Source: Campylobacterales bacterium (GTDB taxonomy: Bacteria > Campylobacterota > Campylobacteria > Campylobacterales > QNZT01). From it: a DNA stretch of 32,890 nucleotides. Below, piece after piece: positions 13,553 through 31,763 of the stretch. A program made the translations under genes and the position numbers. The notes beneath the pieces were generated by a model that did no database searches, was not told where the DNA came from, and was given only the letters and a program-made list of their open reading frames with translations. Position 1 is the stretch's first letter. Every line of letters begins with the position of its first letter. Where the stretch lies: NCBI GenBank assembly GCA_027056215.1, contig JALULO010000143.1, positions 1 to 32,890 of the forward strand. Reading direction: 5' to 3'.

Positions 13553-14275
13553 GTGAAAAGAGGTCTTTTAGATTTAACACTTTTGTATTGTGGGTGTTAC
13601 TGGTTTGTGACATTCACAGTGACTGTATTACTCACTTGGGTAATCGGTCTTGTGATGCATGCATCAATTCTATCTATAACTTTGTTTATGATAGGTGTAA
13701 TTGCTTTTATCTGGGTAAGTTGGCTTTACTTTGTCAAGCTTGGTGCAGAATATCGTAAAGACTTTTTCAAACTTCTTGAGAAAAAAGGTGTTAAAGATGC
13801 GAAACTAGAGTGTCCGGAAATCAAAGCTTTTCAAGTTCCAAAAGTCACCCAAAAATGTCCACGTCAACGCAAAAAAGATGCACCTATGGCATACACAATC
13901 TCTTTCTTCTATCTGTGTAAAGAGTCAATCACTATCTATACAAAATGTGCACATTTCCATATCTTTAAAGTAGAAAAAGCAAAAGTTCCAGGTTCTATAT
14001 TTATCCCAAAATATAAAAACAAAGAAGCTTGTGGCGATATTTTAGAGTATTATTATTACTATATTCAGCGTGTGGAATTTGCAAATAATGAGATTGTTTT
14101 TTATTTTGCAGATGGATCATCAAAATCATTTCCTGTGGCGAAGAAACAAGCCACACCTATCATCAAAGAGATACGAAGTCACTTACGCGCAACGGCGCAA
14201 CGTAAGATGCTACACGGTTATAGAGAACCCCTCGATGTCAGGGTACATGGTCGTGTCAAACATACTAAGGAATGA
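13553..14275 (+). CDS. Hypothetical membrane protein (2 N-terminal TMs, basic soluble domain); start uncertain
   Basis: 240-codon ORF filling the gap before a terminator-like hairpin. The GTG start lacks a clear RBS. Confidence 0.65.
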   Translation: MKRGLLDLTLLYCGCYWFVTFTVTVLLTWVIGLVMHASILSITLFMIGVIAFIWVSWLYFVKLGAEYRKDFFKLLEKKGVKDAKLECPEIKAFQVPKVTQKCPRQRKKDAPMAYTISFFYLCKESITIYTKCAHFHIFKVEKAKVPGSIFIPKYKNKEACGDILEYYYYYIQRVEFANNEIVFYFADGSSKSFPVAKKQATPIIKEIRSHLRATAQRKMLHGYREPLDVRVHGRVKHTKE

Positions 14276-15513: not shown

Positions 15514-16968
15514 TTATCTCCTTTTGTTATGATTTCGATTTCTATCACCGCCACGACTATCACCATCACGTCTACGTTTATTATGACCTCTATTGTTGTA
15601 ACCACGATTACGACTTTTGCCTCTTTTTTTGCCATCATCATTTTTAAATCGTTCAAAAAGACGTTCTACCTCAGCACTGTTCATGCCTATCTTATCGGAT
15701 CCAGCAATGTCGTTTGCGCTATACATTAAAGAAGCTAGTTTAAGTGCTATATCTTCATCAACAAACTCTTTTTTCAAATCATCTACAAAATCTCTAGCAA
15801 GATCACTGATCTCTTGTTTAGCTACTTTATCCAGCATCGAACTTTTTTGACGCATTTGAACATCTGCAATATTAGGAATCACTTTTGATTCAAGCTGACT
15901 TCCAACATTTTTTTGAATCTTTTTCAAAGAGTTAAATTCATGCGGTGTTACAATCGAGATTGCAAGTCCATCTTTACCCGCACGTCCGGTTCTACCGATA
16001 CGATGAACATAACTTTCAGAGTCAAATGGTATATGATAGTTAAAAACATGGGTAACATTTTGAACATCTAAACCACGCGCTGCCACATCTGTTGCAATCA
16101 AAATCTCAAGATCATTACGTTTAAATGCACGGATTACCTCTTCTCTTTGACGCTGTTCCATATCTCCGTGTAAACCTTTGGCAGAATACCCTTTTGAAGA
16201 AAGAAATGTACTCAAACGATCTACCTCTCTTTTGGTACGACAAAAGACGATTGATTTATCAGGATTTTTAAAATCCATCAAACGAATCAAAGCATCATCT
16301 CTCTCACTTTCTTTAACAACATAATAATTTTGCTTGATATTAACATTGGTTACCTCATTTTTGGTGATGGTTACAAACTCTGGTCGGTAAAGAATCGTTT
16401 TAGAAAGTTCTCTGATAGCAGGAGGCATAGTCGCTGAGAACATAAGTGTTTGGCGTGGTGCATCAAAATAGGTAAAAATCTCTTTGATATCATCTAAAAA
16501 TCCCATATCCAGCATCTCATCAGCTTCATCTAAAACAACAAATTTTGGTTCGATGTTGATTTGACCATTGCTCAAAAGATCTAAAAAACGCCCTGGTGTT
16601 GCAACAACTACCGCTGCATTTTTAACATGTTTGATCTGTCTTGTGTAAGAACTTCCACCATATACTGTGGCAGTATTGATTCCAAGATACTTACCAAAAC
16701 GAAAAATTTCATCACTTACTTGTGTCGCTAACTCTCTAGTTGGCACAATTACAACTGCTTCGACACCGCCATCCAGTGAAAGCATATTTAAAATCGGTAA
16801 ACCAAACGCTGCTGTTTTACCCGTTCCTGTATGCGCTTGTGCTACGATATCTTTTCCCTCTAAAACGATAGGCATCGCTTCTTTCTGTACAGGACTAGGC
16901 TCTTTAAAGCCAGCATCATCAATCGCCTTTTGCAATTGATCTTTAAAGTTAAATTCTTTAAATGTCAT
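15514..16968 (-). CDS. DEAD-box ATP-dependent RNA helicase
   Basis: Q-motif, 'AHTGTGKT', 'PTRELA', 'TPGR', 'DEAD', 'SAT', 'ARGLD', 'HRIGRTGRAG', Arg/Gly-rich tail. Confidence 0.96.
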   Translation of the reverse strand: MTFKEFNFKDQLQKAIDDAGFKEPSPVQKEAMPIVLEGKDIVAQAHTGTGKTAAFGLPILNMLSLDGGVEAVVIVPTRELATQVSDEIFRFGKYLGINTATVYGGSSYTRQIKHVKNAAVVVATPGRFLDLLSNGQINIEPKFVVLDEADEMLDMGFLDDIKEIFTYFDAPRQTLMFSATMPPAIRELSKTILYRPEFVTITKNEVTNVNIKQNYYVVKESERDDALIRLMDFKNPDKSIVFCRTKREVDRLSTFLSSKGYSAKGLHGDMEQRQREEVIRAFKRNDLEILIATDVAARGLDVQNVTHVFNYHIPFDSESYVHRIGRTGRAGKDGLAISIVTPHEFNSLKKIQKNVGSQLESKVIPNIADVQMRQKSSMLDKVAKQEISDLARDFVDDLKKEFVDEDIALKLASLMYSANDIAGSDKIGMNSAEVERLFERFKNDDGKKRGKSRNRGYNNRGHNKRRRDGDSRGGDRNRNHNKRR

Positions 16969-17162
16969 TCATTCTCATTTCATGTTTGATACTGTGATAA
17001 ATCATATTATTTTACAATTGTTAACGTGTTTTATCGCTTTTGCATACACAAATATTTTGCTCTATAGTTCGTATCAAGTTTATATTTTTAATCTCATCTA
17101 AAACACTTAAGTATCCCAGATAGTTAAAAAAGAACCTAGGAAATGTATGCTGTATCTTAGAA

Positions 17163-17180
17163 GGTGCGCGATTATATCTA
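17163..17180 (-). promoter_or_regulatory. Sigma70 -10 box with GC-rich discriminator for the DEAD-box helicase
   Basis: Minus strand reads TAGA-TATAAT-CGCGCACC (TATAAT at 17176-17171), implying a leader of about 195 nt. Confidence 0.6.
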
Positions 17181-17225
17181 AATTTTTATGAAATTCATAC
17201 TAATTTAATCTTAATTTTTAAATTA

Positions 17226-18689
17226 TTATTTTTGAAAGACTTTTTTAAATGAAAACCTATTTTTACTTCGTAATAACGCCAGCTTCTCTTTACACTCTAA
17301 ATAGTATTGACCATTAGGGAAATGGTACAAATACGATTCATAGGCTGCGATTGTATTATGTTCACAAGCTTCATACCATACTTTATTATCATGCACTTTT
17401 ACATGTTGTTCACGAATGATAGTATCTATCATTTTGATCGCTTCTTGTTGAAATAGACCACTAGGATAGCTACTAAGATAATTTTCAAAAGATTCTTTGG
17501 TATGCTGCATTTTAGCTTTCATCCAAAACATAGTCTCTTTTTCAATAGCTTGTCGTACAGTGAGTATACCTTTGTAAGAGGGATCATCTAAATTGTGTAA
17601 ATATGATAGCGAATCGGGTACGGAGGTCAGATTGTTTTTATCAATCAGTAAGACTTTTAAGGTATGCATATTTCCTATGCTCTCTGGTAAACTTATGAGC
17701 TTATTGTTACCCACGTCTAACTTAACCAAATGTTGCAATTGGCTGATATTTTGAGGCAATGTTGAGAGTCGATTCCATCGAGCCACTAATAATTCAAGAT
17801 TTTCAAACTCTTCGATCCATGAAGGTAACTGCGTCAACGAATTTCCCAAAAGTGTCAATCTTTTAAGAGATTTCAATCCTCTTAGTGACTCAGGCAAATG
17901 ATCAAAAGCATTATAGCTGATATTTAAACTCTCCAACTGTGTTAAATTTCCTATAGAATCAGGTAATTGACTCAAAGCATTATTGTCTATTGTCAACTCT
18001 TTAAGATCAGATAGGTTTCCAATCCATTCAGGTAATTTTTTCAATGGATTATTGCTAATTTTTAACTTCTTTATAGAGGTAAGATTCTGCATCCACATAG
18101 GTAAAGTATCAAGATTGTTGTTACTAATATATAATGCATCTAGGTTTTTGAGATTTTCTATCGTCGAGGGGAAAAATATCAATCTATTATTACTGATATA
18201 AAACTCTTTTAAATTTATAAGTTTACTCATCGATTGGGGTATATTTCTTAATTTATTGGAGCCAAGATCAAGCTTTGTCAATTTCTCTAAATCACCAATC
18301 CACTCAGGTAACTGTGACAATGTGTTCTTATAAAGACTAAGTTCTTCTAAGTTTTCTAAGTTTTGAATCCATGTAGGTACAACTTCTAGCATATTTGAAC
18401 CCAAATCAAGAGAAATCAGGTTTTTTAACTCCCCTAAGACTTCCGGCAAATAAGTTAATTCACAATTAGATAAATCTAACTTTTTAAGCGTTCCGAGTGC
18501 ATATAAATCCCTTGGTAAACGTCTCTCTGCTATATGATGTTTATCTGCCCAGATCATTAACTGTTTGATATTATTAGAAATTGTGGCAGGTGTTGATTTA
18601 TGAGAAAGTACCTTTTGAATATTATCAAGATATACATCATAATTGTCAAACCTTTCTAATAACTGAATATATGTTTTTTCAATTGTCAT
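17226..18689 (-). CDS. Leucine-rich repeat protein (13 x 23-aa LRR) with two C-terminal helical 'YL..YP.G' repeats
   Basis: LxxLxxLxLxxNxLxxLPxxIxx repeats at residues 65-363, N-cap 'WADKHHIAERRLPRD', C-terminal 49-aa duplication. No signal peptide. Confidence 0.93.
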   Translation of the reverse strand: MTIEKTYIQLLERFDNYDVYLDNIQKVLSHKSTPATISNNIKQLMIWADKHHIAERRLPRDLYALGTLKKLDLSNCELTYLPEVLGELKNLISLDLGSNMLEVVPTWIQNLENLEELSLYKNTLSQLPEWIGDLEKLTKLDLGSNKLRNIPQSMSKLINLKEFYISNNRLIFFPSTIENLKNLDALYISNNNLDTLPMWMQNLTSIKKLKISNNPLKKLPEWIGNLSDLKELTIDNNALSQLPDSIGNLTQLESLNISYNAFDHLPESLRGLKSLKRLTLLGNSLTQLPSWIEEFENLELLVARWNRLSTLPQNISQLQHLVKLDVGNNKLISLPESIGNMHTLKVLLIDKNNLTSVPDSLSYLHNLDDPSYKGILTVRQAIEKETMFWMKAKMQHTKESFENYLSSYPSGLFQQEAIKMIDTIIREQHVKVHDNKVWYEACEHNTIAAYESYLYHFPNGQYYLECKEKLALLRSKNRFSFKKVFQK

Positions 18690-19481
18690 TTACACATCCT
18701 CTGTCATAGGTTCTTTTAATGCAATCTTCTCAGATTGGTATTGCATCTTTTTTGTTAAATCTTTGACTATGCTCTCTTTATTGTCATTAACATATTCAAA
18801 ACGATACTGGCGAGTACTCTCATAAAAAGAAAATAATGTTTCAGAGAAAATAGCTTCTGTTTTTCTAAATCGTATGGCTGGAAATCTATGCATAAAATAT
18901 TGTACTACATTAGGTTGTGTTTCGATCATCTCCTCTGATGCAAAAACAATTGTATAAAACCCCGCATCATAAGCAGCATCAAAAAACTCTTTCATTCTTT
19001 TTGTCAAAGAGCTATCTTCCGGAAAATGATCCAGATGTATAAGCAGTAAATCGTATGGCTCTTTTTGCTCTGTATTTTGATTGTATTGACTGAGGGTTTT
19101 TTGATCCGAAGATAAAAGATCATGATAACGATGTAAAAGTGTTTTTTCAAGCTTGTTAAAATCCAAAATCGCATCTTCTAACGTCAAAGAGATATGATAC
19201 ACATCGTGCTCTTTAAATTCTGAAAGATAGGCAAAACGTTTTTTATAACTAAAATCAAATACATGCATATTTAATCCTGTATCAGAGGTGACTTCGCATA
19301 ATTTCAAAGCAACATTTTCTATAAAATTATTTGCATCAGACTCACTTTGTTCATCAAAGATTACACTAAATCCGCCTTTATTTGCCGATAATAGTAATGG
19401 TAATGCTATATGATCATCTAATAAATCACCAATATAAATACCCCATGGGAATGCATACTTCTTTTCTGCCATCTTAACCAA
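18690..19481 (-). CDS. Hypothetical protein resembling the degenerate N-terminal ATPase-like domain of FtsK/SpoIIIE (EssC-like) proteins
   Basis: 'NMHVFDFS', 'HRYHDLL...TLSQYNQNTEQKEPYDLLLIHLDHFPED...KRMKEFFDAAYDAGFYTIVF'; no Walker A. RBS AAGGAG; the start may be ATG 19472. Confidence 0.6.
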   Translation of the reverse strand: MVKMAEKKYAFPWGIYIGDLLDDHIALPLLLSANKGGFSVIFDEQSESDANNFIENVALKLCEVTSDTGLNMHVFDFSYKKRFAYLSEFKEHDVYHISLTLEDAILDFNKLEKTLLHRYHDLLSSDQKTLSQYNQNTEQKEPYDLLLIHLDHFPEDSSLTKRMKEFFDAAYDAGFYTIVFASEEMIETQPNVVQYFMHRFPAIRFRKTEAIFSETLFSFYESTRQYRFEYVNDNKESIVKDLTKKMQYQSEKIALKEPMTEDV

Positions 19482-19515
19482 TTCTCCTTGCCTATAAAAA
19501 TAGAATAGTACGTTT

Positions 19516-19540
19516 AAATCGGCATTTCAGAAAAATTTTA
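19516..19540 (-). promoter_or_regulatory. Candidate sigma28 (FliA) promoter for the FtsK-like/LRR pair
   Basis: Minus strand TAAA-atttttctgaaatgc-CGATTT (TAAA-N15-CGAT), about 35 nt upstream of the start. Confidence 0.55.
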
Positions 19541-19554
19541 AATAGCTAAAATAT

Positions 19555-20442
19555 CTAATGGGTTAAAAGATCTTTAAGACTTTGTTGTACATCTTTTCCT
19601 TCTAAGATAAGATAAATTTCTTGTGCGATTGGTGTATATATCTTCTCTTTTTGGACAATATTGTAAACAGCTTTAGTGGTATACACACCCTCTGCTACTT
19701 CACCAAGCTCTTCTAAGATTGTATCGAGATCTTTATGCGCCGCCAAACCAAGTCCAACTCTGTAGTTTCTTGACAGTACACTTGTTGCTGTCAAAAAAAG
19801 ATCACCTGCACCACTTAAACCCAAAAAAGTATCTTTTTTTGCACCAAAATGTGCACCAAAACGTGTCATCTCAACCAAGCCTCTGGCAATAAGCGAAGCT
19901 CTGGCATTGTTTCCAAGTTGCAAGCCATCACAAATACCACTGGCTATGGCTATAATATTTTTGTAGGCACCACTGATCTCCGCACCTACGGTATCAGAAG
20001 AAACGTAACTTTTTATAAAAGAGGGAAAAAAAGTTGCATATTGGTCTGCAAGTGTCTTATTTCCAGAACTAACCACTATAGCTGTTGGCAAAGATTGTAT
20101 CACCTCGGCAGCAAAAGAAGGGCCTGAAACAAACGCAAGATTTTCACGGGGGATAAACTCTTCAAAAACTTCATTTAAAAATTTTCCTGTAGCAATCTCT
20201 ATACCTTTTGATGCGATCAAAAACTTTTGCCCTGTAAATTGCAGTTGCTGTTCCAACCAAACTCTGGCATTTTGTGCTGATATCGCAAATACCAGATACT
20301 CAAGCTTTTGAATCTCCTCCATAGAAATAAAATTTGGCAATGCTTTTGTATGTCGTGAACTATAATAAACTTCATGATTTTGGCTAAATGCAAAGCCCAA
20401 AGCTTGCCCCCATTTTCCTGCACCGATTATACCTATCTTCAT
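19555..20442 (-). CDS. gpsA: NAD(P)H-dependent glycerol-3-phosphate dehydrogenase
   Basis: 'IIGAGKWG', 'SKGIE', 'SGPSFAAEV', 'KNIIAIASG', 'GAGDLFLT', 'SRNY', 'AEG'. Confidence 0.97.
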   Translation of the reverse strand: MKIGIIGAGKWGQALGFAFSQNHEVYYSSRHTKALPNFISMEEIQKLEYLVFAISAQNARVWLEQQLQFTGQKFLIASKGIEIATGKFLNEVFEEFIPRENLAFVSGPSFAAEVIQSLPTAIVVSSGNKTLADQYATFFPSFIKSYVSSDTVGAEISGAYKNIIAIASGICDGLQLGNNARASLIARGLVEMTRFGAHFGAKKDTFLGLSGAGDLFLTATSVLSRNYRVGLGLAAHKDLDTILEELGEVAEGVYTTKAVYNIVQKEKIYTPIAQEIYLILEGKDVQQSLKDLLTH

Positions 20443-30470: not shown

Positions 30471-31763
30471 TTACTTCACTACTTTAGCTCTATATACCTC
30501 TTCCATCATAGCTTTCCAATCTGCATCCAGACTATAAGCCAAACCATCATCTGCATGAATAGCAGGGTCATTTAGCCAGTCAAGCGAAATACGCCCTCCT
30601 TTATTGTCAGAGGAAGAAGCAGAATAGAAAATAACATATTTATCACTCTTATCCAGTGCACGTTCCAAGGTTGTTTTCATATCCATAAGACCTACCTTAT
30701 CTGTAGTATCAAACTCAGGATATGTGGCACTTGCTAAAGGTTCATTTGAAACCATAAAGTCCACATATATCTCTTTAGCCCATGAAGCACGTTCCTCTTG
30801 TGGCACGACCCAATGCTGCGTGGCATCTACGACATTGTTAGTAGTATTTAAGGCGATGGTATGTTTACGCCAAGTATAAGCATCATCAAACTGCTTCTGT
30901 GTACGAAGTCTGTAGTCTTCACCCATATCATGCAATGTCGCCTGATGCGATAGTCCTTTTTTTAATCCCGTAAACATAGCACCTGCCCATTCATGCTGAC
31001 GCTCCAGTCCGACATCGACGACAACAGGATGTCCATCGATGCCACGATTGGCTTCTATATGTCCCTCCACAGGAGAATGATAATAGAGTACATCTATAGC
31101 GGAATACGCACGCACCATAGCGTCCATGATTTGCTTAAAACGTGCAGTAATCTTGGCTGAATGCTCCGTAAAAGTATGGTTAGGATTTTTATATGCTTTA
31201 GCATCATACCATGCATCACCATGCTTATAGTTAATCATTTTAAGGCTCTCATCATCATAAGCTTCATCGTCATAGACAATCCCTCTAAAGCCTAAATTTT
31301 TAGCTACTTTAGCTAGAGTTTTAAAGTTTGCTATCACATTGTTCCATACCCCATCATCCCAAAAGTCACCAGGGTAATGCATATTTACGATTAAAAAGTT
31401 TGATTTTGTCGGGTATAAATCCTTTACAGCTTTCACTTCATTCCAAATAGAGTCATAAGTTAGTAAGGACGTATTGGACTCCATCACTGTATTGGTATAG
31501 GAGTTACCTACCATAGTAAACCCCGAAAAAGGCAAAGTATTGATGTATGCAGCCCTTGCAGCAAAATTATCTGCCATTTCAGGAAGCCAGTGTCCTTTTT
31601 GGTAAAGAATCAACTCTTTTTTACTATGTAACTGTGTCACATCATCAGTATGATTGTCAGAGCCAATAGTATCTTTGGATAGTGGTTTAGCAGTACTGTT
31701 TCCGCATCCTAAAAAAGATACAAGAGCAAACACAGAGAAAGAGATAATAAGAATTTTTAGCAC
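30471..31763 (-). CDS. Uncharacterised lipoprotein, possibly a TIM-barrel glycoside hydrolase
   Basis: Lipobox 'SFLGC'; 'DFWDDGVW...AKVAKNLGFRGIVYDDEAY' resembles D-x-E catalytic strands; rich in Trp, Tyr and Asp. GTG start with RBS AAGGT. Confidence 0.6.
   Translation of the reverse strand: MLKILIISFSVFALVSFLGCGNSTAKPLSKDTIGSDNHTDDVTQLHSKKELILYQKGHWLPEMADNFAARAAYINTLPFSGFTMVGNSYTNTVMESNTSLLTYDSIWNEVKAVKDLYPTKSNFLIVNMHYPGDFWDDGVWNNVIANFKTLAKVAKNLGFRGIVYDDEAYDDESLKMINYKHGDAWYDAKAYKNPNHTFTEHSAKITARFKQIMDAMVRAYSAIDVLYYHSPVEGHIEANRGIDGHPVVVDVGLERQHEWAGAMFTGLKKGLSHQATLHDMGEDYRLRTQKQFDDAYTWRKHTIALNTTNNVVDATQHWVVPQEERASWAKEIYVDFMVSNEPLASATYPEFDTTDKVGLMDMKTTLERALDKSDKYVIFYSASSSDNKGGRISLDWLNDPAIHADDGLAYSLDADWKAMMEEVYRAKVVK

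Follow-up and report, generated by a model that had tools for sequence, protein, structure and literature searches.

FtsK/EssC-type ATPases that contain dead domains are known to drive the transport of proteins and DNA. To our knowledge, the way in which such dead domains select their clients has been worked out in no more than a few Gram-positive type VII systems. Related arrangements described in other bacteria include the so-called 'mobile versions of T7SS' (type VII secretion systems) of beta-, epsilon- and gamma-proteobacteria, which, according to the accessible text of the account, combine a solo WXG protein with a YueA-like ATPase that has three FtsK domains, of which the middle one alone is active (Zhang et al. 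2012, PMC3482391). Helicobacter pylori HP0062/HP0066, with an HNH nuclease nearby, has been presented as such a set, as far as the accessible description goes (PMC4978471). Active and inactive FtsK domains also appear, in main-text descriptions, as modules of ternary nucleoside triphosphate (NTP)-dependent conflict systems (Kaur et al. 2020, PMC7159879; 2021, PMC8195603). Here, we analyze a gene pair in a 32,890-nucleotide stretch (the window) from a Campylobacterales bacterium (contig JALULO010000143.1, assembly GCA_027056215.1). The pair, located between gpsA and a DEAD-box helicase gene, encodes an FtsK/EssC-like domain, hereafter Nd, and a leucine-rich repeat (LRR) protein. It had been singled out from the sequence alone as a stand-alone inactive FtsK/EssC-like domain plus LRR protein inserted among core genes (the original prediction).

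We consider it probable that this pair is a reduced, motor-less derivative of a rare four-gene chromosomal accessory system. In the full systems, the dead domain would clamp the N-terminal helix of the partner, a repeat protein, with the surface of its invariant FPWG strand and so act as the receptor through which that protein is coupled to the motor. In the window, the two proteins would form a constitutive pseudo-ATPase/LRR complex. Selection may maintain this complex as a scaffold for binding or sensing that is sufficient on its own, possibly attached to the inner face of the membrane by an amphipathic tail.

The Nd protein has no match in Pfam (including PF01580 at E≤1) or NCBIfam, neither protein of the pair matches any PADLOC 2.0 family at E≤1, and a phmmer search of Nd against PDB sequences returned chance matches only (E about 0.5). 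An AlphaFold2 model of Nd, built from a 32-relative alignment, has a predicted local distance difference test score (pLDDT) of 86 and a predicted template-modelling score (pTM) of 0.86. Foldseek retrieved 87 matches to this model at E≤0.001. The best match was the cytoplasmic domain of EssC (5fv0, 3.6e-9), and others included EssC ATPases 2-3 (D2-D3; 4lya), EccCb1-D2 (9jv8, 4.2e-8), FtsK (2ius, 3.4e-7) and the coupling protein TcpA; for the EssC, EccCb1-D2 and FtsK matches, the TM-score is about 0.6 on the query. The model thus indicates the RecA-like fold of the FtsK/EssC/EccC motor domains. The original prediction had pointed to a resemblance to the degenerate first ATPase domain of FtsK/EssC-like proteins; it was right at the level of the fold, and homology to longer proteins (below) agrees with it.

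Where the active second domain of the relatives has the G-x-x-G-S-G-K-T loop (Walker A), Nd reads GGFSVIFDEQSE, and where that domain has the hhhhDE strand (Walker B), Nd reads LLLIHLD. With both Walker motifs replaced at the aligned positions, Nd is a pseudo-ATPase. The lack of Walker A had been noted before, as had the lack of membrane-spanning or signal sequences; the maximal 19-residue Kyte-Doolittle means of the two pair proteins are 1.21 and 1.06, with no transmembrane (TM) or signal-like segment in either. The most conserved stretch of the family is FPWGIYIG: F11, P12, W13, G14, Y16, I17 and G18 are invariant in 32 sequences, and F11, P12, W13, G14 and G18 are invariant in the 19 motor-less sequences as well.

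Sixty longer relatives of Nd were found (E 9e-72 to 2e-31), in epsilon- and gamma-proteobacterial hosts. All but one (59/60) have a length of 493–607 residues and a PF01580 domain C-terminal to the region aligned with Nd; the exception, P0062 (825 residues), has LRR families there instead. The relatives of ~575 residues are soluble proteins with an inactive domain at about 1–250, an active FtsK domain at about 250–520 and a short tail, and have no TM or FHA part. The second domain of one of the relatives, P0029, matches PF01580 at 2.6e-23. By alignment, Nd corresponds to the N-terminal half of these inactive-plus-active FtsK proteins. The N- and C-domains of the full-length relatives are collinear over 205 columns (hhalign E 0.0025, probability 12%), and a profile built exclusively from motor-less sequences picks up the second domain, too, in most full-length matches ('2 stretches'); the two-domain layout would fit an internal duplication. 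An exhaustive search with the motor-less profile yielded 294 cluster representatives at E≤1e-3, of which 60 reach ≤1e-30. Among these 60, about a dozen have 230–315 residues, and most of the matches listed have 560–650.

To explore the genomic context of the family, 72 loci were collected (species genomes, 20; metagenomes, 48; genomes related to that of the window, 4), and their open reading frames (ORFs) were classed with phmmer. An intact full-length two-domain gene is present in 34 loci and a frame-split one in 4; 16 have a complete ORF with the dead domain only, 2 an Nd-LRR fusion, 6 an Nd cut by a contig end, 5 an Nd stub of less than 200 residues, and 5 no called Nd ORF. The description of Nd as a domain that stands alone is therefore correct for the window, which has no motor domain, and incorrect for the family, in which nearly all of the longer relatives and 38 of the 72 loci have an active ATPase domain. 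The homologues are nevertheless not always full-length, given the 16 complete dead-domain-only loci.

The product of the next gene matches the window's LRR protein in 26 of the 38 full-length loci. Gene junctions in the full-length loci abut or overlap, usually by 4 or 8 bases. The LRR-like partner of another locus (L011) is placed after two small genes, six loci (L014, L015, L020, L022, L053, L055) have an unmatched downstream gene, most with the same N-terminal motif by eye, and five (L013, L043, L044, L056, L065) have no downstream ORF before the contig or locus end. An adjacent gene matching the LRR protein is also found in 7 of the 16 complete motor-less loci, and Nd and LRR parts are fused in L038, L080 and P0062. 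A conserved pairing with LRR genes, which the original prediction had raised, is thus borne out by the neighborhood survey.

Downstream in 17 of the 38 full-length loci is a pair of genes (S182/S100) for helical hairpin proteins of ~180 and ~100 residues. The C-terminal 95 residues of the larger protein align with the smaller one (hhalign 93.7%, E 2e-7), indicating that the two are paralogues. In the model of a 182-residue member, residues 89–181 form a long helical hairpin (pLDDT about 80–89), while the N-terminal 88 residues are of low confidence. The ~180-residue proteins carry at least three unrelated N-terminal versions on the conserved C-terminal hairpin, one of which (L055:2877-3515) has an HNH-like Cys/His pattern by eye. 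This layout resembles that of a polymorphic toxin, but the variable part is N-terminal. The full system would consist of four genes, encoding the two-domain ATPase, the repeat partner, which is translationally coupled to it, and the two paralogous hairpins.

A toxin-antitoxin-like cassette of two genes nearly always separates the partner gene from the hairpin genes, and its type varies by locus: AbiEii (by Pfam), or PIN-like, HEPN/MNT-like or Fic-like (all three by eye). Differing cassettes were seen directly after the partner gene, and ahead of the hairpin genes wherever the contig extends to them, in L014, L015, L016, L019, L020, L023, L024, L041, L045, L048, L049, L053, L054, L061, L063 and L064. 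No channel gene recurs in the neighborhoods of the related loci. Among known defense families, the active domain of P0029 matches the PADLOC models SspH (1.4e-27) and mad8 (5.1e-25), and the 101-residue hairpin protein has one weak PADLOC match at E≤0.1, to a type II methyltransferase model (E 0.0079); no PADLOC family was found for the partner proteins of L016 and L023 or for the 182-residue hairpin protein.

The LRR protein of the window matches the Pfam families LRR_14 (4.6e-40), LRR_8 (1.5e-36) and LRR_4, and 11 of its repeat units fit a regular expression. It has five parts: an N-terminal helix, a short W-A-D-x-x-x-I linker, the LRR array, two 'YL..(Y/F)P.G' two-helix units with no Pfam match, and a basic tail. 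The 'YL..(Y/F)P.G' motif comes after the docking helix in many partners of full systems. The repeat part varies among 38 partners: 23 have LRR families, 3 have WG repeats, and Sel1 and Lcl_C occur once each. The first ~25 residues, on the other hand, share an aromatic-x-x-hydrophobic-hydrophobic ... Y-x-x-Y motif, which is located within the first 45 residues of 26 of 40 partners, compared to 4 of the 342 remaining ORFs in these loci. Across 38 partners, the one invariant column is that of Y20 in the window's LRR protein, and Y17 is also conserved.

The C-terminus differs in a way that may bear on localization. Tails similar to NRFSFKKVFQK of the window protein end the L036, L037 and L066 orthologues and the L023 partner, and 5 of 29 complete partners (L014, L053, L054, L055, L061) have a TM segment instead of the tail (19-residue mean above 2.3). 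These TM segments and amphipathic tails suggest that the partner is membrane-associated. We presume, as a lead only, that the amphipathic tail resembles the membrane-targeting helices of MinD or FtsA.

The interaction between the two proteins was modelled with full-length Nd (32-row alignment) and residues 1–110 of the LRR protein (12-row alignment) in three runs. The ipSAE interface score was 0.82 in each run, compared to 0.01 for the best of three controls; in calibration, 58 of 80 solved complexes attained the ipSAE mark used, as did 2 of 110 mismatched pairs, figures that are only roughly valid here, where our own alignments were used. The runs share at least 61% of contacts, with a partner pLDDT of at least 70. 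The predicted interface is formed by Nd residues 7, 12–14, 16, 25, 27–30, 32–34, 60, 63–64 and 218–223 and LRR residues 6–29, the FPWG strand region meeting the N-terminal helix. Nd residues 12–14, 16 and 27–34 and LRR residues 6–29 belong to the most conserved stretches of the two proteins. We know of no solved complex of this kind that the model could have memorized. The model thus supports binding of the LRR N-terminal helix by the FPWG surface of Nd, and with it the earlier idea of an adaptor with a partner.

Comparison with other genomes of the genus shows how the pair came to its present location. In all five examined (5/5), gpsA is directly followed by the helicase gene, i.e. the site is empty. 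The gpsA-helicase spacers of these congeners (125–330 nt) align with the window from the LRR stop codon on, including a conserved TATAAT, which places the downstream edge of the insertion at this codon. The pair and its 73-nt leader are therefore an insertion of about 2.33 kb, and its description as inserted among core genes, with gpsA and the helicase on either side (Pfam), was accurate. No convincing flanking repeats or target-site duplication were found at the pair. A 12-nt perfect inverted pair (17153–17164/19598–19609) is probably due to chance. On a metagenome contig (L048), a full-length system lies directly downstream of a DEAD-box helicase gene related to that of the window; this second link to the helicase may hint at a preferred insertion region.

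The same motor-less pair is located behind gpsA in another genome (G010) and on a metagenome contig (L009, L040), and beside cbpA/hspR-like genes in G016 and G012 (L036, L037), where the LRR orthologues have 491 and 490 residues (phmmer 7e-134 and 1e-121). LRR orthologues of 487–491 residues are thus present in three further species-level genomes of the genus (G010, G012, G016), at two sites, and in G008 Nd and LRR are fused in one 785-residue frame (L038). Between the closest pairs, identity is either about 50% or about 100%. The distribution is otherwise sparse: within the family, 6 of 32 genomes have the Nd domain, and within the order, 5 of 201 sampled genomes have it (the window's genome is counted in both), and no Nd relative was detected in plasmid and phage collections (tblastn) or IMG/VR.

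The window lacks the motor domain, the cassette and the hairpin genes, and Nd ends at the domain linker. As most relatives carry the active ATPase domain, the window gene is likely a derived, motor-less form. A tree was built from the 49 non-identical dead domains that remained once exact duplicates and rows with fewer than 200 matched query residues had been removed. It requires the architecture to have changed at least six times on branches with good support. One clade is compatible with the six motor-less LRR pairs closest to the window (approximately unbiased test, p-AU 0.625). With L058 and L066 included, a single origin of the resulting eight pairs is rejected (p-AU 0.0003, the log-likelihood being lower by 157). 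It appears, therefore, that motor-less LRR pairs arose at least twice. The repeated loss of the motor, with Nd and LRR retained or fused, argues that the pair is a functional unit of its own rather than a product of pure decay.

Decay is, however, the main competing explanation: the pair could be a non-functional remnant, in which the motor and downstream genes were deleted and the rest is drifting to loss. Degradation is indeed frequent in this FtsK-like family, with four frame-split full-length genes plus L026, several short N-terminal stubs, and deletion scars such as those in contig C183, L062 and L083, and the window pair is without any enzymatic part. Full-length genes are broken by frameshifts in L021, L024, L026 and L039, and in L025 by about 1.3 kb of inserted sequence with an opposite-strand ORF. 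We nonetheless consider a mere remnant unlikely, since neither ORF in the window is interrupted and the stop of one is coupled to the start of the other, the family-invariant residues persist in 19 motor-less sequences, full-length LRR orthologues are maintained at two sites in the genus, motor-less LRR pairs arose at least twice, and the two parts are fused in three proteins.

Several considerations weigh against our interpretation of the pair as a selected unit derived from a four-gene system. As most relatives keep the motor, the motor-less pair could be a slowly decaying leftover despite its conservation. With no PADLOC match and no recognizable effector domain, the putative 'sensor' is without an output. 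The Nd-LRR binding is predicted, being a model confidence obtained from our own alignments, and the toxin-antitoxin cassettes, of which AbiEii alone is confirmed by Pfam, may be mere hitch-hikers. Near-duplicate loci (L009/L040, L023/L068, L016/L052, L045/L049, L027/L082) mean that the counts overstate the number of independent cases, and the eight-pair group was chosen after the tree had been seen, which weakens the test of a single origin. Finally, the window's own genome is 82% complete, and 'absent' in the following is equivalent to 'not found'.

The original prediction also envisaged docking of the pair onto a type VII-like machine encoded elsewhere in the genome. In this scenario, the LRR protein would be cargo, handed over to that machine by the pseudo-ATPase in the role of adaptor or chaperone. 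The best structural matches of Nd are indeed ATPases of T7SS, among them a structure of EccC ATPases 2-3 solved together with a signal-sequence peptide (4n1a), the FtsK-plus-solo-WXG sets described in proteobacteria set a precedent as far as the accessible account goes (PMC3482391), and a minority of the partners have TM segments. However, searches of the genome with PF01580 and P0029 detected just the housekeeping FtsK (a 783-residue frame) and the window gene, with no EssC-like or two-domain ATPase; the best WXG100 (PF06013) match reached 16.6 bits against a cut-off of 27.3; and neither an intact hairpin gene nor any ~180-residue hairpin gene was found. The full-length ATPases of the family, moreover, have no TM or FHA part, and the hosts are diderm, with no outer-membrane route offered by the system. 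Components such as EssA/EssB/EsaA or EccB/D/E are not apparent among the listed neighbors, although no search aimed at these families was made.

The hairpin proteins of the related loci are the other potential link to type VII secretion. Their model superposes on H. pylori HP0062 (Z 10.2, rmsd 2.4, 84/84 residues) and on EsxA/EsxB (Z 9.4), but these matches are tied with those to unrelated hairpins (top Z 10.5). No WXG100 family was detected in the hairpin proteins by Pfam at E≤0.1; PDB sequence-profile searches with both hairpin alignments returned designed repeats and coiled coils and no Esx proteins; Foldseek with the 182-residue hairpin model gave nothing at E≤0.001, an ESAT-6 homologue being at rank 34 (E 1.7); and the ESM Atlas held no usable match for the 101-residue protein. 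The original suggestion that such ATPases accompany WXG100-type proteins in Gram-negative bacteria is thus upheld in part: the relatives' loci do contain hairpins of WXG100-like shape, without a sequence match to WXG100. Overall, delivery to a type VII-like machine is improbable. The pair appears to be the receptor-plus-partner core of a four-gene system after motor loss, rather than an orphan adaptor awaiting a machine elsewhere. The alternative of a flagellum-co-expressed effector with its chaperone found no backing either, as no flagellar gene was seen among the 23 other large ORFs scanned in the window.

The genome does contain a trace of another copy. On contig C183 (G000:C183:5205-5390; locus L002 1507-1695), the first 30 residues of a 62-residue ORF match the start of Nd (profile E 4.3e-9), and its end matches the end of the ~100-residue hairpin protein (profile positions 64–95, E 3.9e-7); MNT-like and HEPN-like genes follow directly. 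This ORF has the appearance of a scar, left when an entire second system was deleted in frame.

The LRR protein was also compared to the NCBIfam models of type III secretion system (T3SS) LRR effectors (XopL, XopAC, XopAE, SspH2), and all scores were below the curated cut-offs (168.5 vs 450, 167.9 vs 600, 143.1 vs 500 and 49.5 vs 1243); scores so far under the cut-offs reflect LRR similarity only. In another scenario, a vent symbiont or epibiont would use the LRR protein as a eukaryote-like factor in host interaction, with the dead domain as its private chaperone and an unrelated export route. This is very unlikely, even though partner repeats (LRR, Sel1, WG) are of kinds enriched in symbionts, the DNA is present in hydrothermal-vent metagenomes (the best-matching one may be the source sample) and the LRR region scores 168 bits on the XopAC model, for the protein has no signal peptide and no secretion genes nearby, and such a role would leave the active motor, hairpin pair and toxin-antitoxin cassettes of the full systems unexplained.

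As for the parent system, a conflict role, in defense or between bacteria, is more likely than a housekeeping one, and somewhat likelier than secretion, of which the fold, the combination of dead and active FtsK domains and the hairpin pair are reminiscent. This view is based on a distribution that is sporadic and hops between sites, on deletion scars and embedded toxin-antitoxin-like cassettes, on the swappable repeat 'sensor' and on the polymorphic N-termini of the ~180-residue hairpin protein. The listing of active and inactive FtsK domains among conflict-system modules (PMC7159879, PMC8195603) and the matches of the P0029 active domain to SspH and mad8 point the same way. A more speculative extension, which we regard as doubtful but less so than the rivals above, is that the FPWG domain and the partner helix are a portable plug-and-socket, through which an FtsK motor takes interchangeable repeat sensors (LRR, Sel1, WG). 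The result would be a split form of immunity resembling that of the nucleotide-binding LRR receptors (NLRs), built on FtsK instead of a STAND NTPase and with polymorphic hairpin-tagged outputs, one of them HNH-like. Motor-less versions would then have become autonomous repeatedly, as ligand sensors or scaffolds at the membrane, or as decoys that tune or block related systems.

The features of the pair and its flanks are summarized in Table 1. The 263-residue ORF reported earlier is obtained when Nd is started at the TTG at 19481, and its stop codon (TAA, 18692–18690) directly adjoins the ATG of the LRR gene (18689–18687), as had been described. The ribosome-binding site noted before is also present (AAGGAG), 11 nt ahead of the ATG at 19472 and just 2 nt ahead of the TTG. 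Based on this spacing and on the database copy of the protein (P0001), which has 260 residues, the product is probably the 260-residue form that starts at the ATG. A second site, GAGGA (18701–18697), is located 7 nt ahead of the LRR ATG. The promoter-like motif that had been reported could not be substantiated: 22 promoter-like hexamers were counted in 16900–19700, compared to 16.3 ± 3.9 in shuffled sequences, with none in the gpsA-Nd spacer. No terminator-like site was called in the scan around the pair, and an Rfam search of 16900–19700 gave no match.

The helicase leader is strongly conserved in six genomes of the genus, with long invariant blocks downstream of the TATAAT, and is possibly a regulatory 5' untranslated region of the helicase gene. 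Further out on the flanks is dapD (Pfam). Of the 25 large ORFs scanned in the window, the 23 other than the pair are ordinary or unassigned; they include TrkA-like proteins, a K+ channel, gatB, a GGDEF protein, thiE, atpB, radA, a signal recognition particle (SRP)-type GTPase and RNase Y. Two have no Pfam match at E≤1e-4, a 240-residue ORF (13553–14275, +), whose N-terminal region is hydrophobic, and a 430-residue ORF (30471–31763, −).

Table 1. Location of the gene pair, its motifs and its flanking genes in the window.
Feature	Position	Strand	Basis
gpsA, upstream-side flank of the insertion	19555..20442	-	Pfam NAD_Gly3P_dh_C 2.2e-50
73-nt spacer with AAGGAG (19489-19484), part of the inserted segment	19482..19554	-	sequence reading
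Nd gene, inactive FtsK/EssC-fold domain (predicted)	18690..19481	-	AlphaFold2 and Foldseek
FPWGIYIG motif, residues 11-18, core of the predicted docking surface	19428..19451	-	conservation and predicted interface
Degenerate Walker A position, residues 36-47, GGFSVIFDEQSE	19341..19376	-	hhalign and alignment
Degenerate Walker B position, residues 146-152, LLLIHLD	19026..19046	-	hhalign
LRR partner gene, 487 residues	17226..18689	-	Pfam, orthologues
N-terminal docking helix of the LRR protein (predicted), residues 6-29	18603..18674	-	motif count, predicted interface
13 LRRs of 23 residues, residues 68-366	17592..18488	-	Pfam, regular expression, 69-nt DNA periodicity
C-terminal non-LRR region, two 'YL..(Y/F)P.G' two-helix units, about residues 385-470	17280..17537	-	orthologue alignment
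Basic amphipathic C-terminal tail NRFSFKKVFQK	17229..17261	-	similar tails in relatives
Helicase leader/promoter region, outside the insertion; TATAAT 17176-17171	16969..17225	-	congener spacer alignment
DEAD-box helicase, flank	15514..16968	-	Pfam DEAD 9.8e-49, Helicase_C 4.4e-35

The interest of this case lies in a compact, soluble, two-domain relative of FtsK/EssC in Gram-negative vent bacteria, whose Nd-helix contact, predicted with high confidence, is kept or fused in several lineages after loss of the motor, pointing to a receptor-tag pair. The motor-less pair would be a natural experiment on a pseudo-ATPase without its engine. The full system is a candidate for an uncatalogued conflict system: it occurs sporadically, changes sites, leaves scars and has toxin-antitoxin cassettes embedded in it. 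Were it only a remnant, the pair would still document the decay of such systems.

We found no account of an FtsK-like gene paired with an LRR partner in the main-text passages of the open-access literature searched; within the same passages, the partner protein, the docking helix and the motor-less and fused forms were not found described. In PADLOC, the likeness to SspH and mad8 is limited to the generic ATPase domain of P0029, and the window proteins match nothing. The conflict systems of Kaur et al. share predicted-inactive FtsK domains in sporadic loci alongside repeat proteins, but are defined, in their main-text descriptions, by STAND, vWA-MoxR and effector-associated domains, none of which is seen here; as the distinction is drawn from those descriptions, some overlap is possible.

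There are also likenesses to the 'mobile T7SS', as their accessible accounts portray them. Both occur in epsilon- and gamma-proteobacteria, both combine inactive and active FtsK copies with adjacent small helical hairpins, and the hairpin protein of L055 has an HNH-like part. The two differ in the number of FtsK domains, three in the described ATPases versus two in our relatives and one in the window, and the relatives' hairpins are undetected as WXG100 by Pfam or PDB profiles. A repeat partner, a docking helix, a toxin-antitoxin cassette and motor-less forms have no mention in the accessible text of these accounts.

EssC and EccC are the best structural matches, with the same RecA-like FtsK fold, and consist of tandem FtsK-like domains, some of them degenerate. 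By its title, the EccC entry 4n1a has a substrate signal peptide on the later ATPase domains, a parallel to the proposed role of Nd as a receptor. The window protein differs in being a single domain without Walker motifs, and its full-length relatives in being soluble two-domain proteins without FHA and TM parts. The predicted ligand of Nd is the N-terminal helix of a large repeat protein, whereas that of EssC/EccC is the tail of a WXG100 dimer.

A last comparison, made by analogy, is with the NLR/STAND receptors, in which an oligomerizing P-loop NTPase module is likewise joined to an LRR array; here the joining may be achieved by a docking helix or by fusion. The NTPase in this case is of the FtsK/HerA class, the window module would be unable to hydrolyze NTP, and no effector domain is present. 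P0029 scores below the cut-offs for NACHT (19.4 bits vs 26.7) and nSTAND, and the window protein has no match to either. The C-terminal LRR sensor of the STAND receptors has its counterpart here on a separate polypeptide, and in the fused proteins of L038, L080 and P0062 on the same chain as the FtsK-like domain.

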